From Carcharhinus amblyrhynchos (taxonomy: Eukaryota), in NCBI GenBank assembly GCA_965287045.1, contig OZ336884.1:52266001-52330000 (forward strand): DNA of 64,000 nucleotides, in the 5' to 3' direction. This document shows, piece after piece, positions 6,774 to 51,655 of this stretch. Positions within the stretch are counted from its first letter, which is position 1, and every line of letters begins with the position of its first letter. Position numbers and translations under genes: made by a program. The notes under the pieces were generated by a model. That model was not told the origin of the DNA. It saw only the letters and a program-made list of their open reading frames with translations, and did not search any database.

Positions 6774-9081
6774 TGCTGTGCTTTCTGCCTATGCTGCCAA
6801 TGGGGCAGCATATAAATGAAAATAGGAATTTGCCTATATTACAGTCATATGGGATGTCAGTTGTGACTTTGACAACAGCTGTTATGGTATTGTGGCAGGG
6901 TAGACACCTGCTTAGAGAGGTTCAAATATGAGGTTCCAAGAAGGATGGAAACAAAGTTGAGAAACAACAACATGCAAGGACTTTGGAAAGGAAAAGCGGG
7001 TTGGAGATGGATTTGTAGTTTTCAAGGGTGATGGGGGTCAAGAGTTTTTTCTTGAGGAGAGGGGAGATAATTTCAGATTTAGGAGTGGTAACACTTGCAA
7101 CATTAAATTGTCACCTAAGATTTGAACCAAGTGCAAGGTTAGGTGCTCAGCAGTTTGGTGGGAATAAGGTCAAGCACTTTAGAAACCAATATGTATTGTG
7201 AGGTCCCAACCTCGTGATGCATATCATTATTGAGTTATATATGAACATTTTCAATGTAAAAGAGCACTTATTACCCTGCTAGCTGTACATATAATGCACA
7301 ACTCATCAGAAAATGCTGTAAAGAGGGGAGTGCATTAGCATCTGTAAAGGAGAAAGAACAGATTTATTTTTGGGTCCATCCCTTTGTAAGAGCTTTTTGA
7401 CAATAGGGTACAGCAAAATGTATTTTCTTTGTGCTGATTGACTGACTGTATTTGAAACATTTCATTGCTTTTATTTTGGAAATTCGGTAGTTTGTCTTTT
7501 TATCTGCACATGAATGTGCATGTGCCCGGATTATATTCTGCTATGAAGACTCTGGTTTCCTCTGAAATTGAGAGAAAACCTGTTTGTGCACAGGTGCACA
7601 CCGTAAATCTGCCGACACAAGTACAACAGCCCTCCATATTTCTGAGGCAACCAGAGAATTGTATCTTTGCATTCAGTCCACTCCGTACAAGCAGATTCAA
7701 TGCTCCTCAACTGCACTGGTCACTGCAGTCTGAGTTCTTTACATGCACAAATAACTTCTGAAACTGTGCTGCGATTTTGTTAGGAAATATGTTAATGAGA
7801 ATACAACACTGAAGTTGTTGGTACAGTTAAACCTACATGGAGCATCACAATCTTTGGAGAGAAGGGTGAATGGGGAGAGGAATTTAGAGGAGGGCTTTGT
7901 GATAATTTGGTCACATCACTCAGGTCCAGCTGAACTTGCAAAATCTCTTGGGTTCTGTATCTACATGGAGATCTTTATCAAAAAGTTGTTAACTATTTGC
8001 TTCTGGAACAGAGAATTCACTTTTTTGAAGTCCCAACATTTGCTCCGACTCTATAAAGTTTGTAATTTGCTGCTTCTGTATCCATATAGACATTATGAAC
8101 ACCCAGAAGTGACAAATTATAAATAGCCTTGAGCAGGTGTCAGAGCCATGATATGAAGAAGTACTACACGAATGAAGCAGAGAAGGGTCGACAGATGTGA
8201 TCAGGTCTTCTAGGGCTGAACTCAATTACTTTCATAGCTCCAAACTGCTGTGGAGAGAAGGTGGGGTAGTGGGATGAGAGGGTGGCAGGAACTATCTTAA
8301 GTCAAAACTGCTTCTGTATATCAGCCTCAACATGTTTAACTGCTTGTTCTCAGATTCCTCTGGAGATGATTGCTGTTCTGTGTCTTTATGGCAGGTTGAG
8401 CTTACATCCTTAATGTAATGTAATCTAACCTAATCATTCTGCTTAACTGAAACCACTTGTTACACTGGCCTGACACATGGCTAAGGTTTAATCTGTTATA
8501 ACCAAAGATCCCTTGAATGTTTGTATTGCAATAATATTTTCCATGCCCTCATTCTCAATCATTTTCCTAGCAATTTTTGCTGAAGCTTGAAAATACTGCA
8601 TTGAATTTCCAATGCCTTGGCATATATTTGCTTCACTTGTGTTTCTTATAAGCATCACATATTGCTAGGAGAAAGAAAAATAATTCTCCTTTGATGTGAA
8701 CTGAAATAGCAAAGCCAACAAAATTAAAATGGAAGGAACTGCAAATAAGTGTGTGTCACCAAATTATAAATGAAAAAGCTGAAAATCCTTGGATATTTTA
8801 ATCATTCATCGTGAAGCTTCACAAGGACCTGTTCCAAATGAGCTAGAGAAGTATCCTCCTCGATCCCATGGTATGGGGACAGAAAATCATGCTAGCTTTT
8901 CTTTCATTGCATCAAAATACTAATAAAATATATTCTAAATGTTGAGGATCCTTTTCAGTGAAACCACTTTGGGTCATCTACAACCTCTGCTGAAAAATCC
9001 CATCTCGCACAAAATTATCGCAGCCTCTGACTAAATGGATCAGAGATCGATTTTCGAGCTCCATATTGCCCATTCACATTA

Positions 9082-10500
9082 CCTTGGTGATTATTTTCCA
9101 AACGTCGCTGGATTCCGGGAAGTGCCGGAAGATTGGAAAACGGCTAATGTTACGCCGTTGTTTAAGAAGGGTGCCAGGCAAAAGGCAGGGAATTATAGGC
9201 CGGTTAGTTTAACGTCTGCTGTAGGTAAAATGTTAGAATCCGTGATCAAGGAGAAAATAGCGAGGCATCTTGAGGAGAATTGTTTGATAGAGCAGACGCA
9301 GCACGGTTTCGTTAAGGGGAAGTCGTGTCTGACAAATTTATTGGAGTTCTATGAGGATGTGTCTGGGGCGGTGGATAGAGGAGAGCCGGTGGATGTGGTG
9401 TTTCTTGATTTTCAGAAGGCGTTTGACAAGGTGCCTCACAAGAGGTTATTACAGAAGGTCAGAGGGCATGGAGTTGGGGGTAGGGTGTTAGCGTGGATAG
9501 AGGATTGGCTGTCAAATAGGAGGCAGAGAGTAGGGGTCAATGGGTGCTATTCTGATTGGCGGTTGGTGACTAGTGGAGTGCCCCAGGGGCCGGTGCTGGG
9601 GCCTCAGCTATTCACCATTTATATAGATGCTCTGGAGGAGGGAACTGAGTGTATGGTGTCGAAATTTGCTGATGGCACCAAGATTGGTGGAACGGCAAAT
9701 TGTGCAGAGGGTGTGGAAAGTCTGCAGAAGGATCTAGATAGGCTGGGCAAATGGGCCAGGAAATGGCAAATGGAATTTAATGTTGGCAAATGTGAGGTCG
9801 TCCACTTTGGTAGGAATAATGGTAGGAAGGATTATTACTTACGTGGCAAAAAACTGCAGCATGCGACGGTGCAGAGGGACCTCGGGGTCCTTGTGCATGA
9901 GTTGCAAAAACCCAGCCTGCAGGTGCAGCAGGTGGTCGGGAAGGCGAATGGGATGCTGGCCTTCATAGCGAGGGGGATTGAATATAAAAGTAGGGAGGTC
10001 TTGCTGCAGCTGTATAGGGCACTGGTGAGGCCGCAGCTGGAGTACTGTGTGCAGTTTTGGTCGCTGCACTTACGCAAGGATATTTTGGCCTTGGAGGGAG
10101 TGCAGAGGAGGTTTACTAGGCTGATTCCGGAGTTGAGGGGGTTGAACTATGAGGAGAGGCTGAATAAACTAGGCTTGTACTCATTAAAGTTTAGAAGAAT
10201 GAGGGGAGATCTTATTGAGACGTATAAGATGTTGAATGGGATGGATAGGATAGAGATGGAGAGGCTCTTCCCGCTCAGAAAAGACAGTAGGACTAGAGCG
10301 CACAGCCTCAAGATAAAGGGGGGGCGGTTTAGAACGGAGTTGAGGAGGAACTTCTTCACACAAAGGGTGGTGAATCTCTGGAATTCTCTGCCCGTTGAAG
10401 TGGTGGAGGCTGCCTCGCTAAATATTTTTAAGACACGGGTTGATAGGTTTTTGATAGGCAAGGGGATTAAGGGTTATGGGGAGAGGGCGGAAATGTGGAA
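9082..10500 (+). mobile_element. Young 5'-truncated CR1 LINE, ORF2 reverse transcriptase C-terminal half
   Basis: ORF 9035-10510 has CR1 motifs VPEDWKTANVTPLFKKG, NYRPVSLTS, LDFQKAFDKVPH, GVPQG.VLGP, RPQLEYCVQFW, RNFFTQRVVNLWNSLP. Catalytic FADD reads FADG, so probably inactive. Stops before the 3' UTR. Confidence 0.95.
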
Positions 10501-10905
10501 CATGCAGTAGTTTTCTTTCTTGCTGAATCTCATTGTTACTTCCTAAGAACTTCTCAGCTTCCCTAACTGTTCCAATAACTGAGGCAATCAGACTTAAATA
10601 AAAATATTTCTTTGCTGGTTTACTTCCTTACACTACCTGCAAATAACTCCTTCTGGATACAGTTCCATTTATGGTGGACAGTAAACATCAACAAATCATT
10701 CTGAAGTGTCATTGTAAATGATCCCAGGTGTGTTTAACATAGCCTGCTGGAAAGAAAGCCTCGAGGAACTGTTGAACATTTATTTACTATCCAGATCCAT
10801 CTTCTTCTGGGCTCTGGTCACACATGATCTGGTATCACTGATGATTTATCTTAGCTATTGTCATAAAAACTATCAACCCTTTATGATGTATCTTCACCCC
10901 ACCAT

Positions 10906-23200: not shown

Positions 23201-24519
23201 AAGACAAGGAGGAAAGGAAAATAAGGGGGATGGGGGGACATGTCAGGGCAGTTCCCTAATTAATTCCTACCAACAGGTAACATTTCCAAGATTGGGTTAG
23301 GAAGTGGGTCATTGTCCACTACAGAAAGAGACAGACAGCCAAAGTTAACTGTTAAAAGGCCTCAATTAGGAATTAATTTTCAGCATTTCTTACATCTTTC
23401 AGGTTAAACAGCTCCCACCAAACGTACAGCCTACTACTTCAGTGGAGGTGTGTTGTGTGTCACAATCATGGTCCAGACTGATACAATGGAAGAATTACTC
23501 CTCCTGGCCAACTCTTACTGGTCACTTGTTGTTTGATGTGAACATGGGAACCACCTCTGTCTTCCCCAGATCTAACTTGGAGGAACTTCGTTCTCCTGAT
23601 GGGGCTGCCAAGATTCTAGCAATGCAAACCCTCAGATTGGTTCAACAGGCTAAGGACAGTGAACTCAAGAGATGGCAAAATAGGTGACTACCTCTGGGAA
23701 AATCATGATGCTAGTCTCCCTGCCAGCAAGTACAGACTTAAGAACCTCATTTAGTCCTGATGTCTATGTCCCAAAGGCAGCATGGAAATGCTGTCCTATA
23801 TTACACTAAGAATATCTCAAGTGCCCTTAGAGTCAATGACTTTTTGACCAAAACTTCTGGCTATTTAAGGTGCTTTCAAATAATTGTTGTTCTTTCATAT
23901 TCTTACACGTAGCTAAGGCAAACTCTGTTACCAGCATAAGTGCTGCTTAGGTGGAATCTTGGGCTGTTTTGTTGAATGGAAGATAGTTGAACAGATAAAC
24001 ATCTGCAAAGTTTTCTTTTATACCTGAGAACCGATTCAAACCAAGATTTAAAAGGTCTTTCCTATCCTTCTTTGGCTGTATTTTTATAATTATCGATGCA
24101 AGGAGGATTGATATTCATCCACATTATCTCAATAATCTTCTTTGAATTACTGACCAAATGTGAAAAACAAACTTACCAGATGCACATTTTTTGACCACTT
24201 TGAGCAGTAACACCATACTCAGAGGTAATGGTACAAAATTGAAGATATGTGGCAATAAAGGTTTACCAAAGTGTCCACGAGAAATGTGTAGATGATATTC
24301 ACACAAAATTGTCACACACACACACACACAGAACTAATGGACTGCACATTTGGTGGGAGCTGTTTAACCTTAAAAATGTAAGAAATGCTGCACAATCATT
24401 CCTAATTGAGACCTTTTATCAGTTAAATTTAAGAATTTTAACTATTCTGCACTACAAGCATGAATAGTAATTAGGTATTATATATAAATCAAGTGCGTAC
24501 CAAACAATAGATTGCTAAG

Positions 24520-24880
24520 GAATACAGCACAGAAGGTAGCCACTTGGTCAATCATACTCATGCTGGCTCTTTGCAGGAGCTTTTCGATTAGTACCATTCC
24601 CCCGCTCTTTCCCCCACAGCCCTGCAAAATTTTCACCATCACACGTACATCAGACTCCCTTTTGAATCTTTTTACTAAATCTGCTTCCACTACTCATTCA
24701 GAATAGGAATTCCAGATGATGATAGCTTGATGTACAAACAAATTTAACCTTCCTTTCTTTTTTGCTTATTACTCTAGATTTATGTTCTCTAACTACTGAC
24801 TCACCCATAATGTAAGTAGTTGTTCCCCACCTCCATAATTTTGAACCATTCTAATAAATCTCTCTTTAGCAGTCACTGCT
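24520..24880 (-). mobile_element. Old CR1 3' remnant
   Basis: VKRFKRESD...LQGCGGKSG (ORF 24478-24690) matches CR1 ORF2 C-terminus/3' UTR pattern. Confidence 0.6.
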
Positions 24881-24894
24881 CTAATGAGAACCAA

Positions 24895-26780
24895 GTGTTA
24901 TCCATTGTCTGTCTCAGTGAAAAGCTTTATTGAACTGATACAAAGTAGGATTCAACAGTCAACTTGCCTGATCCCAGAATCATATGACTATAACAAACCA
25001 GATGGGACACTTATTAGGACTGCATTTCCAAAACACAAACATCCCCCTTTTCATATCGAACATAAGAGACAAACACCTTCTTTTTCCTAGTGAATAAAAG
25101 ACACATTTGCATGCACGATTCTCTATGACTGTGAGTTACCCAAGTTATCCACTACACACCCACTGTTCTCATGCATTAATAACTGTTTGTTCTACTCATC
25201 AAACACTGCACTTGCACTGCACACACTATTTAAACTGTGCAGGTCTCTTAATGGAACACGTATGCATTAACACTTGTTCTTCATCTAGGTGATATTATTT
25301 GACTGGAATATGTCATTCTCATGGCCCTTGTTGACTTGGTGGCTATTTTGTTCTGTTGGAGATTTGTGGACCTCTGGGATTGATGGTACTTCTGTACTCG
25401 GTACAGCCTTTAAGATCCCTGCTCCTTGACTGGTCGTAGGCAGTGACAGAACAGCTCCACCAGCTGTTCATACATCGCTGTGGTTGAGGCAGTATCTTTG
25501 GCCATTCACTTCCACCATGTAGGATCGAAGTGACAATTATACTTTACACATCCCAAATTTATAGGCTCCCACTGAGAGCACGAGTATTTGTATTCTCGCT
25601 GGCTCCTCATGTTTTTCCATGGTCACATATTGATTTTTCAAGAAGTTCTTCAAAAATCGCAACTTCTTTGAGTGCCTTTTCAACTTGCCATTTGACCTTG
25701 CTGCACATCTGGTTGAGTTTTTTCATCTCCTGCTTTGAGTTACCAACTGTGGAACTGAGAGTCATTATTTCCTCTTGGTACCTTTGTGCTGTCTCTGAAA
25801 TTTGTTTGTTCCATTCTTGCACAGCTTGGTTCATTGAAAACGTCCATTTATCATGTGTTTTCAAAGGTCTAGACTCAGCTGGAATCTTGCCCTTTAGATC
25901 TTCCAGTTCAGCTCTGATGTGAACATTTTCCTGTACAACTGCTTAATTCACCTTGGGCTCATGCATTTTATTGCATTGACTTGGTCAACAACATCTTGTA
26001 GTTTACTTAAATATTGTCTCCCTCACTCTACATTCTTTTGTCTCCCTTCTTCTGGATTTTTTGTTACCTTTCTCTGTTGACACATCCAGGGTTACCAGCC
26101 CAAGTTTTAGACTTGCACCAGCTGTGAAAAGTAGTCATTGCATCCCATTTATAATTCAAAACTCGAGATCTTTTTTCTTGCCATTGCATTGGGTTGTTTC
26201 TTGTGTTCTTGCATCAGACTTATTTGTCCTTTGAGTATGGGTATTTTCAGATTGCCACATGGAGCCACTTGATACAAATCAGTGAAGTCATTCTGCTGCA
26301 TGACATACTATTGTTCACTTAATACTCTCACTCTATGGTCATCACGGCAACAATTACAAACCGTGTATTGCCTAGAGACTTGACTGAACTGACTTGTTGT
26401 AGGTATATAGTTCTTCATCAGACTTGTCTGCAGATATTTCTCCAGTGGCCATCTGTAAAGGTTTGTTTTGCTTTCTTCTCACATATTTGTGTGCAAAATG
26501 CTTCTGATTCTTGCAGTTCAAACTGCTTACCCACATGCTGGGCAATTTTTCCTTTCCTCTTTATACTCTCTTCCACAGAACTTGCATCCAGCCCTTTGTC
26601 TGCAATTGCTCAGCTCTTTTGGCCTGGCCTGTCTCTCAGCTACATGGTACATAATCCTGGCAGGCAGACGCTGAAAACTGCTGTCCTTACCCATGAAACA
26701 ATCAGCTTCTCTAGCCTCCCACAAAAAAAAGAACTTCCTCTTCTACACCCTCTCCAAATAGGCAAGTGTCATGAATAATA
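24895..26780 (-). mobile_element. Internally rearranged Ty3/Gypsy remnant: gag zinc knuckle, protease, insert, integrase C-terminus, probable 3' LTR
   Basis: CKFCGREYKEERKNCPACG (gag CCHC region, ~26530-26590); protease end LLFTAGASLKLG (~26095-26140); integrase tail EPARIQ...RSYMVEVNGQRY (~25490-25605). RT, RNase H and core integrase not seen. Confidence 0.7.
25607..26065 (-). pseudogene. Intronless intermediate-filament (type II keratin-like) rod fragment, coil 1B-L12-coil 2
   Basis: VDQVNAI/KMHEPKVN*AVVQENVHIRAELEDLKGKIPAESRPLKTHDKWTFSMNQAVQEWNKQISETAQRYQEE...GNSKQEMKKLNQMCSKVKWQVE aligns by eye to K5/K8 [21 protein letters not shown]...[43 protein letters not shown]...[21 protein letters not shown]; contains stops and a frameshift. 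Confidence 0.6.
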
Positions 26781-31600: not shown

Positions 31601-32589
31601 GTAAAAAGTCTGACAACACCAGGTTTTAGTCCAACCGATTTATTTGATAGTAAACTCACAAGCTTTTGAGGGGACTGCCTCTTCGTCAGGTGAATGGAGA
31701 GTTCTGGCCTCGGACACAGCATATAAAGCACAGACAGTTTAGAGATTACTGATTAGAATGCGAATCTTTACACCTAACCTGCTGTTCAAGTCCTAAAGTG
31801 GCCGACAATGTGTGTGGAAGGAGCACTGATCACAGGTTAAAGAGATGTGTATTGTCTCCAGACAGCACAGTGAGTGAGGTTTTGCAAACCCAGGCAAGTC
31901 ACGGGGGTTACAGATAGTGTGACATGAACCCAAGATCCCTGTTGAGACCGTCCTCATGTGTGTGGAACTTGGCAATCGTCTCTGCTCAGCGACTCTGCGC
32001 TGTCGTGTGTCGTGAAGGCCGCCTTGGAGAACGCTTACCCGAAGGTCAGAGGCTGAATGCCCGTGACCACTGCGGTAAGCGCAGTGCGTGAAGGTCACTG
32101 CGTGACCTTCGGGTAAGCGTTCTCCAAGGCGGCCTTCACGACACATGACAGCGCAGAGTCGCTGAGCAGAGACCGATAGCCAAGTTCCACACACATGAGG
32201 ACGGTCTCAACAGGGATCTTGGGTTCATGTCACGCTACCTGTAACCCCCGTGACTTGCCTGGGTTTGCAAAACCTCACTCACTGTGCTGTCTGGAGACAA
32301 TACACATCTCTTTAACCTGTGATCAGTGCTCCTTCCACACACATTGTCGGCCACTTTAGGACTTGAACAGCAGGTTAGGTGTAAAGATTCGCATTCTAAT
32401 CAGTAATCTCTAAACTGTCTGTGCTTTATATGCTCTGTCTGAGGCCAGAGCTCTTCATTCACCTGACGAAGAGGCAGTCCCCTCAAAAGCTTGTGAGTTT
32501 ACTATCAAATAAATCGGTTGGACTAAAACCTGGTGTTGTCAGACTTTTTACTGTGTTTACTCCAGTCCAACGCCGGCATATCCACATCA
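31601..32589. mobile_element. Penelope-like element fold-back: two inverted copies of GIY-YIG C-terminus plus pseudo-LTR
   Basis: Arms 31601-32048 and 32103-32551 are near-perfect reverse complements. Encodes SGHGHSASDLRVSVLQGGLHDTRQRRVAEQR. 12-bp TSD tgcttgttactt at 31588-31599 and 32590-32601. Confidence 0.9.
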
Positions 32590-50354: not shown

Positions 50355-50883
50355 TGATGTGGGTATGCCGGCGTTGGACTGGCGTAAACACAGTAAAAAG
50401 TCTGACAACACCAGGTTTTAGTCCAACCTATTTATTTGATAATAGACTCACAAGCTTTCGGGGTTAGCCCCTTCGTCAGGTGAATGGAGAGTTCTGGCCT
50501 CAGACAGAGCATATAAAGTACAGACAGTTTAGAGATTACTGATTAGAATGCGAATCCTTACTGTTGGCGAACACTTCAGTGGTCACGGGCATTCAGCCTC
50601 TGACCTTCGGGTAAGCATTCTCCAAGGCAGCCTTCACGACACACGACAGCGCAGAGTCGCTGAACAGAGACTGATAGCCAAGTTCCGCACACATGAGGAC
50701 GGTCTCAACAGGGATCTTGGGTTCATGTCACACTATCTGTAACCCCCGTGACTTGCCTGGGTTTGCAAAACCTCACTCACTATACTGTCTGGAGACAATA
50801 CACATCTCTTTAAACTGTGATCAGTGCTCCTTCCACTCACATTATCAGCCACTTCAGGTCTTGAACAGCAGGTTAGGTGTAAG
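50355..50883. mobile_element. Penelope-like element with internal inversion (pseudo-LTR on -, GIY-YIG C-terminus on +)
   Basis: 50355-50560 is the reverse complement of the pseudo-LTR; 50561-50883 encodes VGEHFSGHGHSASDLRVSILQGSLHDTRQRRVAEQRLIAKFRTHEDGLNRDLGFMSHYL*. Confidence 0.9.
50446..50486 (-). ncRNA. Minimal type I hammerhead ribozyme motif (Penelope-associated)
   Basis: Minus-strand RNA AUUCAC-CUGACGA-A-GGGG CUAA CCCC-GAAA-GC-UU-GUGAGU: stem I AUUCAC/GUGAGU, stem II GGGG/CCCC, palindromic helix III AGCU, NUH = CUU. Confidence 0.7.
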
Positions 50884-51655
50884 TGGTCCACTTTGGCAGG
50901 ACCAATGGGATGAACGAGTACACTATCAAGGGCAGGAGTCTTAGCAGTGTTGAAGGGCAGAAGGATCTTGGGGTCCGGATCCACAGGACTCTTAAATCGG
51001 CCTCGCAGGTGGAGGATGTGGTCAAGAAGGCGTATGGTGTACTGGCCTTCATTAATCGAGGGATTGAGTTTAGGAGTCGGGAGGTAATGCTGCAACTTTA
51101 TAAGTCCCTTGTTAGGTCCCACTTGGAGTACTGTGCGCAGTTCTGGTCGCCTCACTATAGGAAGGACGTAGAAGCTATTGAAAGGGTACAGGGGAGATTT
51201 ACAAGGATGTTGCCTGGATTGGGAGGCATGCCTTATGAAGATAGGTTGAGGGAGTTGGGACTCTTCTCCCTGGAGAGACGAAGGTTGAGAGGCGACCTGA
51301 TAGAGGTTTATAAAATGTTGAGAGGAATAGATAGGGTGGATTCTCAGAGGCTATTTCCCCGGGTTGAAATGGTCGCTACGAGAGGACACAGATTTAAGGT
51401 GCAGGGAAGCAAGTACAGGGGTGATGTTAGGGGTAAGTTTTTCACTCAGAGGGTGGTGAGTGAATGGAATCGGCTGCCGTCAGTGGTGGTGGAGGCGAAC
51501 TCGCTGGGGTCTTTTAAAAGACTTCTGGATGAGTATATGGGATTTAATGGGATTGGGGGTTATAGATAGGTCTATGGATTGGTAGGTATTGATGTGATCG
51601 GCACAACTTGTGGGCCGAAGGGCCTGTTTGTGCTGTAGTGTTCTATGTTCTATGT
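50883..51655 (+). mobile_element. Young 5'-truncated CR1 3' part
   Basis: Open 228-aa ORF with RSHLEYCAQFWSPHYRKD and FFTQRVVSEWNRLP; tail ttctatgttctatgtt. Confidence 0.95.

Follow-up and report, generated by a model that had tools for sequence, protein, structure and literature searches.

A UACA exon fragment in a Gypsy-type LTR retrotransposon family of sharks, likely acquired from a second LTR family

Results

The window analysed here, a 64,000-nt stretch of Carcharhinus amblyrhynchos DNA on contig C15, carries on its minus strand the remains of an LTR retrotransposon (Table 1). An earlier note on this DNA had read there the order zinc-knuckle remnants, protease end, coiled-coil frame and integrase tail, and the same order was found in our analysis, with the protease end LLFTAGASLKLG at 26134-26099 (minus strand). 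In the following, type II designates the family to which this element belongs, the partner its pol-bearing relatives, and type I a second family carrying UACA sequence. The window copy is truncated at its 5′ side at about 26640, is without a 5′ LTR and the beginning of gag, and retains only the PPT and the 3′ LTR of the set formed by the LTR pair, PBS and PPT. DNA identity is 65-75% between its flanks and the corresponding parts of copies that continue into reverse transcriptase (RT) and integrase. At the place where copies L184 and L187, both partly deleted, hold ~2.2-2.3 kb of pol, the window holds ~470 nt. The insert had been placed at 25607..26065 and described as a coiled coil throughout; the coiled-coil frame is there, but the first ~115 nt (26070-25958) are a linker that matches type I (78%) and gives no DNA match to UACA. 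This linker ends at 25957, at a deletion relative to type I (modal 174 nt). The two UACA pieces that follow abut across a 102-nt deletion, a frameshift lies near 25650, and at the 3′ switch point the UACA frame continues into that of the integrase tail. The element is a dead, 5′-truncated copy of a multi-copy Gypsy-type family whose layout is LTR–gag–protease, UACA piece, integrase tail–PPT–LTR.

Table 1. Parts of the type II copy in the window
Feature	Position in window	Strand	Remarks
gag, 3′ part, including two zinc-knuckle remnants (26586-26489)	26340..26640	-	68-73% identity to pol-bearing L184, L187, L201
Protease remnant, frameshifted and partly deleted	26077..26340	-	protease end, last residues LLFTAGASLKLGLVTLDVS
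5′ switch point CAGAGA	26071..26076	-	also found in the type I repeat tract and, at this spot, in partner copies that bear pol
Linker in common with type I: purine-rich ~24-nt repeats and a unique stretch	25958..26070	-	78% to L115
UACA giant-exon piece 1 (exon nt 901-1078, G000:C28)	25771..25957	-	129/178 identical
UACA giant-exon piece 2 (exon nt 1180-1347)	25603..25771	-	121/169 identical
3′ switch point GAGC	25602..25605	-	common to UACA/type I and the partner integrase tail
Integrase C-terminal tail and 3′ internal region	25053..25601	-	EPARIQ...RSYMVEVNG, at 25606-25501
Polypurine tract (PPT)	25042..25052	-	directly before the 3′ LTR
3′ LTR (LTR-II)	24877..25041	-	begins TGT, has AATAAA; LTR profile match E=1e-23; end deduced, ~24877

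Other repeats were observed in the window. Just past the 3′ LTR, a 113-nt inverted repeat (23341-23453 and 24318-24430, 83% identical) encloses 864 nt. A young long inverted repeat at 31601-32551, with arms of 378 nt (98%) and 71 nt (99%) and a centre of 54 nt, resembles what we take to be a Penelope-type inverted pair with hammerhead-like motifs; in Rfam it gave only a sub-threshold match to a mir-138 hairpin. Open frames of 491 codons (9035-10510, minus strand) and 228 codons (50883-51569, plus strand) read like the ends of a reverse transcriptase, presumably of CR1-type LINEs.

The insert had been taken for the rod of a keratin or another intermediate filament (IF) protein. Results of the similarity searches pointed elsewhere. 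In tblastn the insert matched an exon of UACA at E=9e-22, whereas the best E among 30 of the intermediate-filament loci of the genome was 2.0, and UACA was its best match in both DNA and protein (72% DNA identity in the two blocks of Table 1). That a fragment of type II keratin mRNA was taken up directly by the Gypsy element draws on a Pfam Filament match (E=0.003, profile positions 214-288). With 17.7 bits, this match fell short of the cut-off of 40 and ranked third after two generic coiled-coil families; keratin was absent from the nine PDB matches at E≤10, and the window was not among the 115 Filament matches found in its own genome by profile search. We regard this origin as next to impossible, and the keratin identity was rejected on the comparison of UACA with the IF loci (9e-22 versus ≥2). 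By sequence similarity, the donor gene is identified as UACA and not keratin. The parent gene was located on contig C28 through the single long open frame (942 codons) among 150 protein matches (150 scored candidates), which is 93% identical to Mustelus UACA and corresponds to the giant exon of the gene, 2,715 nt with AG/GT at its borders and further UACA exons on both sides. Because the whole UACA piece lies inside this one exon, missing introns are no evidence for an mRNA step, and the intron-loss argument put forward for an mRNA origin falls.

A DNA search of the genome (2.9 Gb) with the insert gave at least 43 matches at 70-79% identity (best 40 of 438 candidates). Across 297 fetched loci and the window, UACA sequence was found at no fewer than 130 distinct loci, of which 35 have both partner flanks (gag/protease upstream, the partner 3′ part downstream), 11 have one flank, 79 are type I and 5 are unclassified; since loci were picked by similarity and the best candidates scored, these counts are lower bounds. 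Type II has TG...CA LTR pairs, a PBS-like TG(A/G)TGTCAG motif and a PPT, and six copies keep both LTRs, the pairs being 71-82% identical. Of 43 rows compared at the 5′ junction, 34 pass from the protease into the repeat tract at the identical base; 6 run into pol and 3 are broken by other insertions. The 3′ junction was intact, with the same entry point into the integrase tail, in 8 of 27 rows; the other rows belong to type I, to UACA or to copies in which deletions occurred later. No poly(A) was present at 25603, and no clear target-site duplication was seen in type II copies. These results agree with the earlier proposal that the chimera has transposed: joins between gag-protease and insert and between insert and integrase are common to many loci, at least 35 distinct loci have both flanks, and the family is non-autonomous, a host-gene coiled coil that is oriented like the element standing in for RT, RNase H and core integrase. 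The alternative of a single independent retrocopy is refuted by the many copies, their common junctions and the missing poly(A). An L1-type retrocopy was ruled out on the same grounds.

We then compared type II with its pol-bearing relatives, with which it has the LTR in common. From the gag/protease part, 12 of 29 fetched loci led into pol and 11 into UACA, the other 6 having neither, and for loci fetched with the partner 3′ part the numbers were 12, 10 and 7. In L184 and L201, pol lies between pairs of LTR-II. The partner has the order PR-RT-IN with a Ty3-like RT: the RT of L185 is nearest to that of Ty3 (E=8e-8), rve matched L100 at E=4e-4, below the cut-off, and RVT_1 only at E=0.06. Two knuckles and the protease motif IDTGAS could be read directly in L191, and no Pfam gag or protease family was matched in any of the 12 frames given. 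Two-knuckle Gag, PR-RT-IN order, short TG...CA LTRs and a Ty3-nearest RT are features that we assume to be those of the Mag-type Ty3/Gypsy clade, the window copy itself being without pol; the label ‘Mag-like’ stands for this likeness only.

Some partner-related loci had other structures. L188 and L197 are deletion derivatives that lack RT, gag/protease being joined directly to integrase. In L193, which gave no UACA match, the linker known from type I precedes a longer piece of integrase, possibly the result of a separate switch. L196 and L200 (G000:C4, ~51.23 and 50.87 Mb) are near-identical type II copies 0.36 Mb apart, likely the product of a segmental duplication.

Type I elements are free of partner sequence and cover more of UACA (exon nt 853 to ~2410). 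When the genome was searched with the downstream exon portion, at least 106 matches were obtained (best 100 of 4,219 candidates), with one long frame among the matches listed, and at least 79 distinct type I loci were counted. The family has its own LTR of ~280 nt (LTR-I), which is unlike LTR-II, a PBS-like motif and a PPT. Both LTRs were found in L115 (74.5% identity over 267 nt). As a candidate target-site duplication, expected to be 4-5 nt long, its flanks agree at 4 of 5 bases, as do those of L210 and L215; L220 agrees at 5 of 5, and L216, L218, L219 and L226 gave no match. No pol was detected inside or beside type I elements, and no pol-bearing partner among the loci with LTR-I or the regions X and Y; the type I 3′ end was used to fetch 30 loci, of which 23 carried UACA upstream and none carried pol. 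Among L204-L227 there were many LTR-I matches without internal sequence, similar to solo LTRs, and some with a longer duplicated 3′ end. Region X (L229-L257) gives a lysine-rich, protein-like reading right after the type I PBS, with stops at common places; its protein search returned 10 matches, all with broken frames and none a host gene.

Several features connect the two families. The linker of type II is found in type I and occurs neither in UACA nor in the partner. The 102-nt deletion was present in 13 of 43 deletion rows, which comprise type II copies and the type I copies L050, L114, L115 and L116. Type I retains a UACA-like block that has no counterpart in type II, with a modal length of 174 nt (exactly so in 3 of 13, and 173 nt in 2). 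Where the window copy differs from UACA, its base was common with type II copies in 678/1,271 comparisons and with type I copies in 265/650, and the copy clustered with L114, L115 and L149 (FastTree support 0.83). The motifs CAGAGA at the 5′ switch and GAGC at the 3′ switch are present in both parents, giving putative microhomologies of 6 and 4 nt, which are short and lie in purine-rich DNA. Since the linker and the 102-nt deletion are common to both families, type II most likely took its fragment from type I. Capture of a host mRNA by template switching, as proposed in the earlier note, is thus upheld as regards a host-derived coil in a non-autonomous LTR family; a direct mRNA donor is not, because linker and deletion point to type I. 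The immediate donor of UACA to type II was most likely another LTR family and not a host mRNA. Type I and type II could each have captured UACA from host mRNA independently, in keeping with their different LTRs and the different extents of UACA that they carry, but the non-UACA linker and the identical 102-nt deletion largely refute such a double capture, which we consider very improbable.

The same junctions might have arisen between integrated copies of type I and the partner by recombination at the DNA level, or by nested insertion and deletion, with no RT switch. Short microhomologies are compatible with end-joining, both families are abundant, and pol deletions without UACA do occur (L188, L197). 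Such an origin would nevertheless require two precise breaks, the same orientation and no residual type I LTR, whereas a double switch of template is one step and fits the pattern described by Tan et al. (PMC5131818); we judge the DNA-level route unlikely. All in all, we favour, with a probability of about 0.8, the reading that type II is a non-autonomous Gypsy-type family whose UACA piece likely came from a pol-less second LTR family through RT template switching.

How type I obtained UACA was examined with profiles. A profile of 13 elasmobranch UACA orthologues matched the copies inside the giant exon only. When the 5′ regions of 35 type I elements were made into a DNA profile, one of five that were tried, it matched 44 nt of a small UACA exon 15 kb upstream, in agreeing sense and gene order. 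The match had E=9e-4 over 100 kb and scored 14.0 bits, whereas none of 300 codon shuffles exceeded 6.8. Profiles X2, X3, Y1 and Y2 did not rise above shuffles when compared with spliced UACA, no exon-exon junction was seen in type I or type II copies, and extension across the splice junctions was not significant, the score being reached in 53/200 and 18/200 shuffles. On these sequence matches, an mRNA origin of the type I UACA seems likely. The other route, to which we give a minor though real share, is that type I acquired UACA without a spliced mRNA, by read-through or by capture of the giant exon as DNA, or via a UACA duplicate since lost; the hand-off to type II would be the same. It is in line with firm homology lying entirely inside one exon, with differences from UACA that the copies have in common, and with the outcome of the junction tests. 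Against it stand the upstream-exon match in gene order and sense, the finding that type I pieces X and Y matched no intronic UACA, and the single long UACA frame among the scored matches.

To date the capture, copies were compared with UACA of other species. In the UACA columns of 25 copies, the counts were 163 versus 26 for galeomorph-derived residues and 11 versus 54 for carcharhiniform-derived ones. In a maximum-likelihood tree of 19 taxa (13 orthologues and 6 of 96 copies), the copies were sister to lamniform plus carcharhiniform UACA. AU tests on these taxa, with 2,000 replicates, a number flagged by the program as too few, rejected two positions of the copies, one with the source genome and Mustelus (p=0.001) and the other outside the galeomorphs (p ~1e-8); neither placement on the carcharhiniform stem (p=0.23) nor re-rooting on Latimeria, outside elasmobranchs (p=0.085), was rejected. 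Contigs of four other organisms carry the same insertion as the window at ~94-99% identity. One of them, X7, extends from the flank through LTR and tail into the insert (47 differences in 1,529), and X5 and X7 span the truncation point of the window copy. These results indicate that the copies are ancient and that the capture maps near the lamniform/carcharhiniform stem. The split between these two orders is Jurassic.

Finally, we asked whether the coil has been maintained. A comparison of the dN/dS type among copies gave a ratio of non-degenerate to degenerate-site diversity of 0.92 (95% CI 0.86-0.99), or 0.90 (CI 0.79-1.04) with 4-fold sites alone, and decay has therefore been nearly neutral. 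The commonest single stop position occurred in 18 of 60 copies, no stop being common to most of them, and 245 stops were observed versus 488 expected, an expectation that is blind to position and inflated by differences common to the copies. Deletions were multiples of three in 31 of 43 cases and in all four recurrent classes of this set; with the 174-nt deletion included, the recurrent lengths (102, 126, 282, 450 and 174 nt) all divide by three. All 4 copies that could be measured had the 3′ junction in frame, and the phases of the protease-to-coil join were spread 10/7/8 over the three frames. No element-encoded UACA-like protein was found in the protein database at E≤1e-5, either with 106-340 aa or with 285-909 aa, the latter search being a weak blank that also missed partial true UACA proteins. 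Deletions in multiples of three, the in-frame 3′ junction and the lack of a majority stop count for a translated coil; the ratio of 0.92, the fact that deletions between coding repeats are often in frame anyway, and the 10/7/8 phases count against it. That the coil was a translated, useful cargo, kept in frame by both families and passed between them for that reason, is thus a tentative and rather doubtful idea. If it were so, type II would have made one Gag-protease-coil-integrase-tail protein that aided assembly of the pol-less element in partner particles.

Discussion

The results can be combined into the following scheme. Near the lamniform/carcharhiniform stem, type I would have picked up UACA sequence, probably from mRNA, been amplified in trans and lost internal blocks. 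A pol-bearing element would then have been packaged together with RNA from the type I subfamily that lacks the 102 nt; as the junctions suggest, RT would have jumped into the type I RNA at GAGC and returned at CAGAGA, giving rise to type II. The new family has spread to many loci that have its junctions in common, presumably keeping its LTRs, PBS and PPT and receiving its enzymes from the partner. All examined copies have since decayed, almost without constraint.

Taken together, the data describe a vertebrate case in which two LTR families multiplied a fragment of one host exon, which is now found at no fewer than 130 loci and was apparently passed on from one family to the other. A practical consequence is that broken UACA-like coiled-coil frames are spread in shark genomes and can lead to annotation errors such as the keratin call at this locus. 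The insertions may also act as presence/absence markers at the base of the galeomorph tree. The importance of the case is limited because neither an intact copy nor a host function was found among the copies examined.

Capture of host genes by LTR elements is already known; in the literature searched we found no precedent for its scale here or for a hand-off from one family to another. We found no paper on capture of UACA by shark LTR retrotransposons, although the families may stand in Repbase or Dfam as unnamed Gypsy entries, and shark is not mentioned in the sections of PMC10886601 available. The comparisons that follow draw on the accessible parts of the papers cited.

LTR-mediated retrocopies have been described from flies to mammals, with a double-template-switch pattern (Tan et al. 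2016, PMC5131818). Like them, type II has internal ORFs replaced by partial host sequence, microsimilarity at both switches and no poly(A), and went through later rounds of transposition as a non-autonomous element. Those cases are young, occupy few insertion sites and come directly from mRNA, whereas the shark case comprises at least 130 ancient loci, two LTR families, one capture and an apparent hand-off, and intron loss is not seen. Crocodilian ERVs with KIT-ligand or nectin3 (Chong et al. 2014, PMC4299795) are likewise an old vertebrate LTR lineage amplified after replacement of a domain by host sequence. They are retroviral, carry a near-whole host ORF, with six copies in the case of nectin3, and show purifying selection on KIT-ligand; the shark element, in contrast, is Gypsy-type, carries a fragment of one exon and gives a weak signal of selection. 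Both animal precedents (PMC5131818, PMC4299795) are low-copy and one-step. In plants, Bs1 holds host fragments within an LTR element, and in Veju-L and BARE-2/Wis-2 abnormal template switching led to exchange among LTR elements that are unrelated (PMC13317346), both as proposed here. In these plant cases, however, the two features occur in separate elements (PMC13317346), whereas in sharks the host fragment itself is the cargo that was apparently exchanged.
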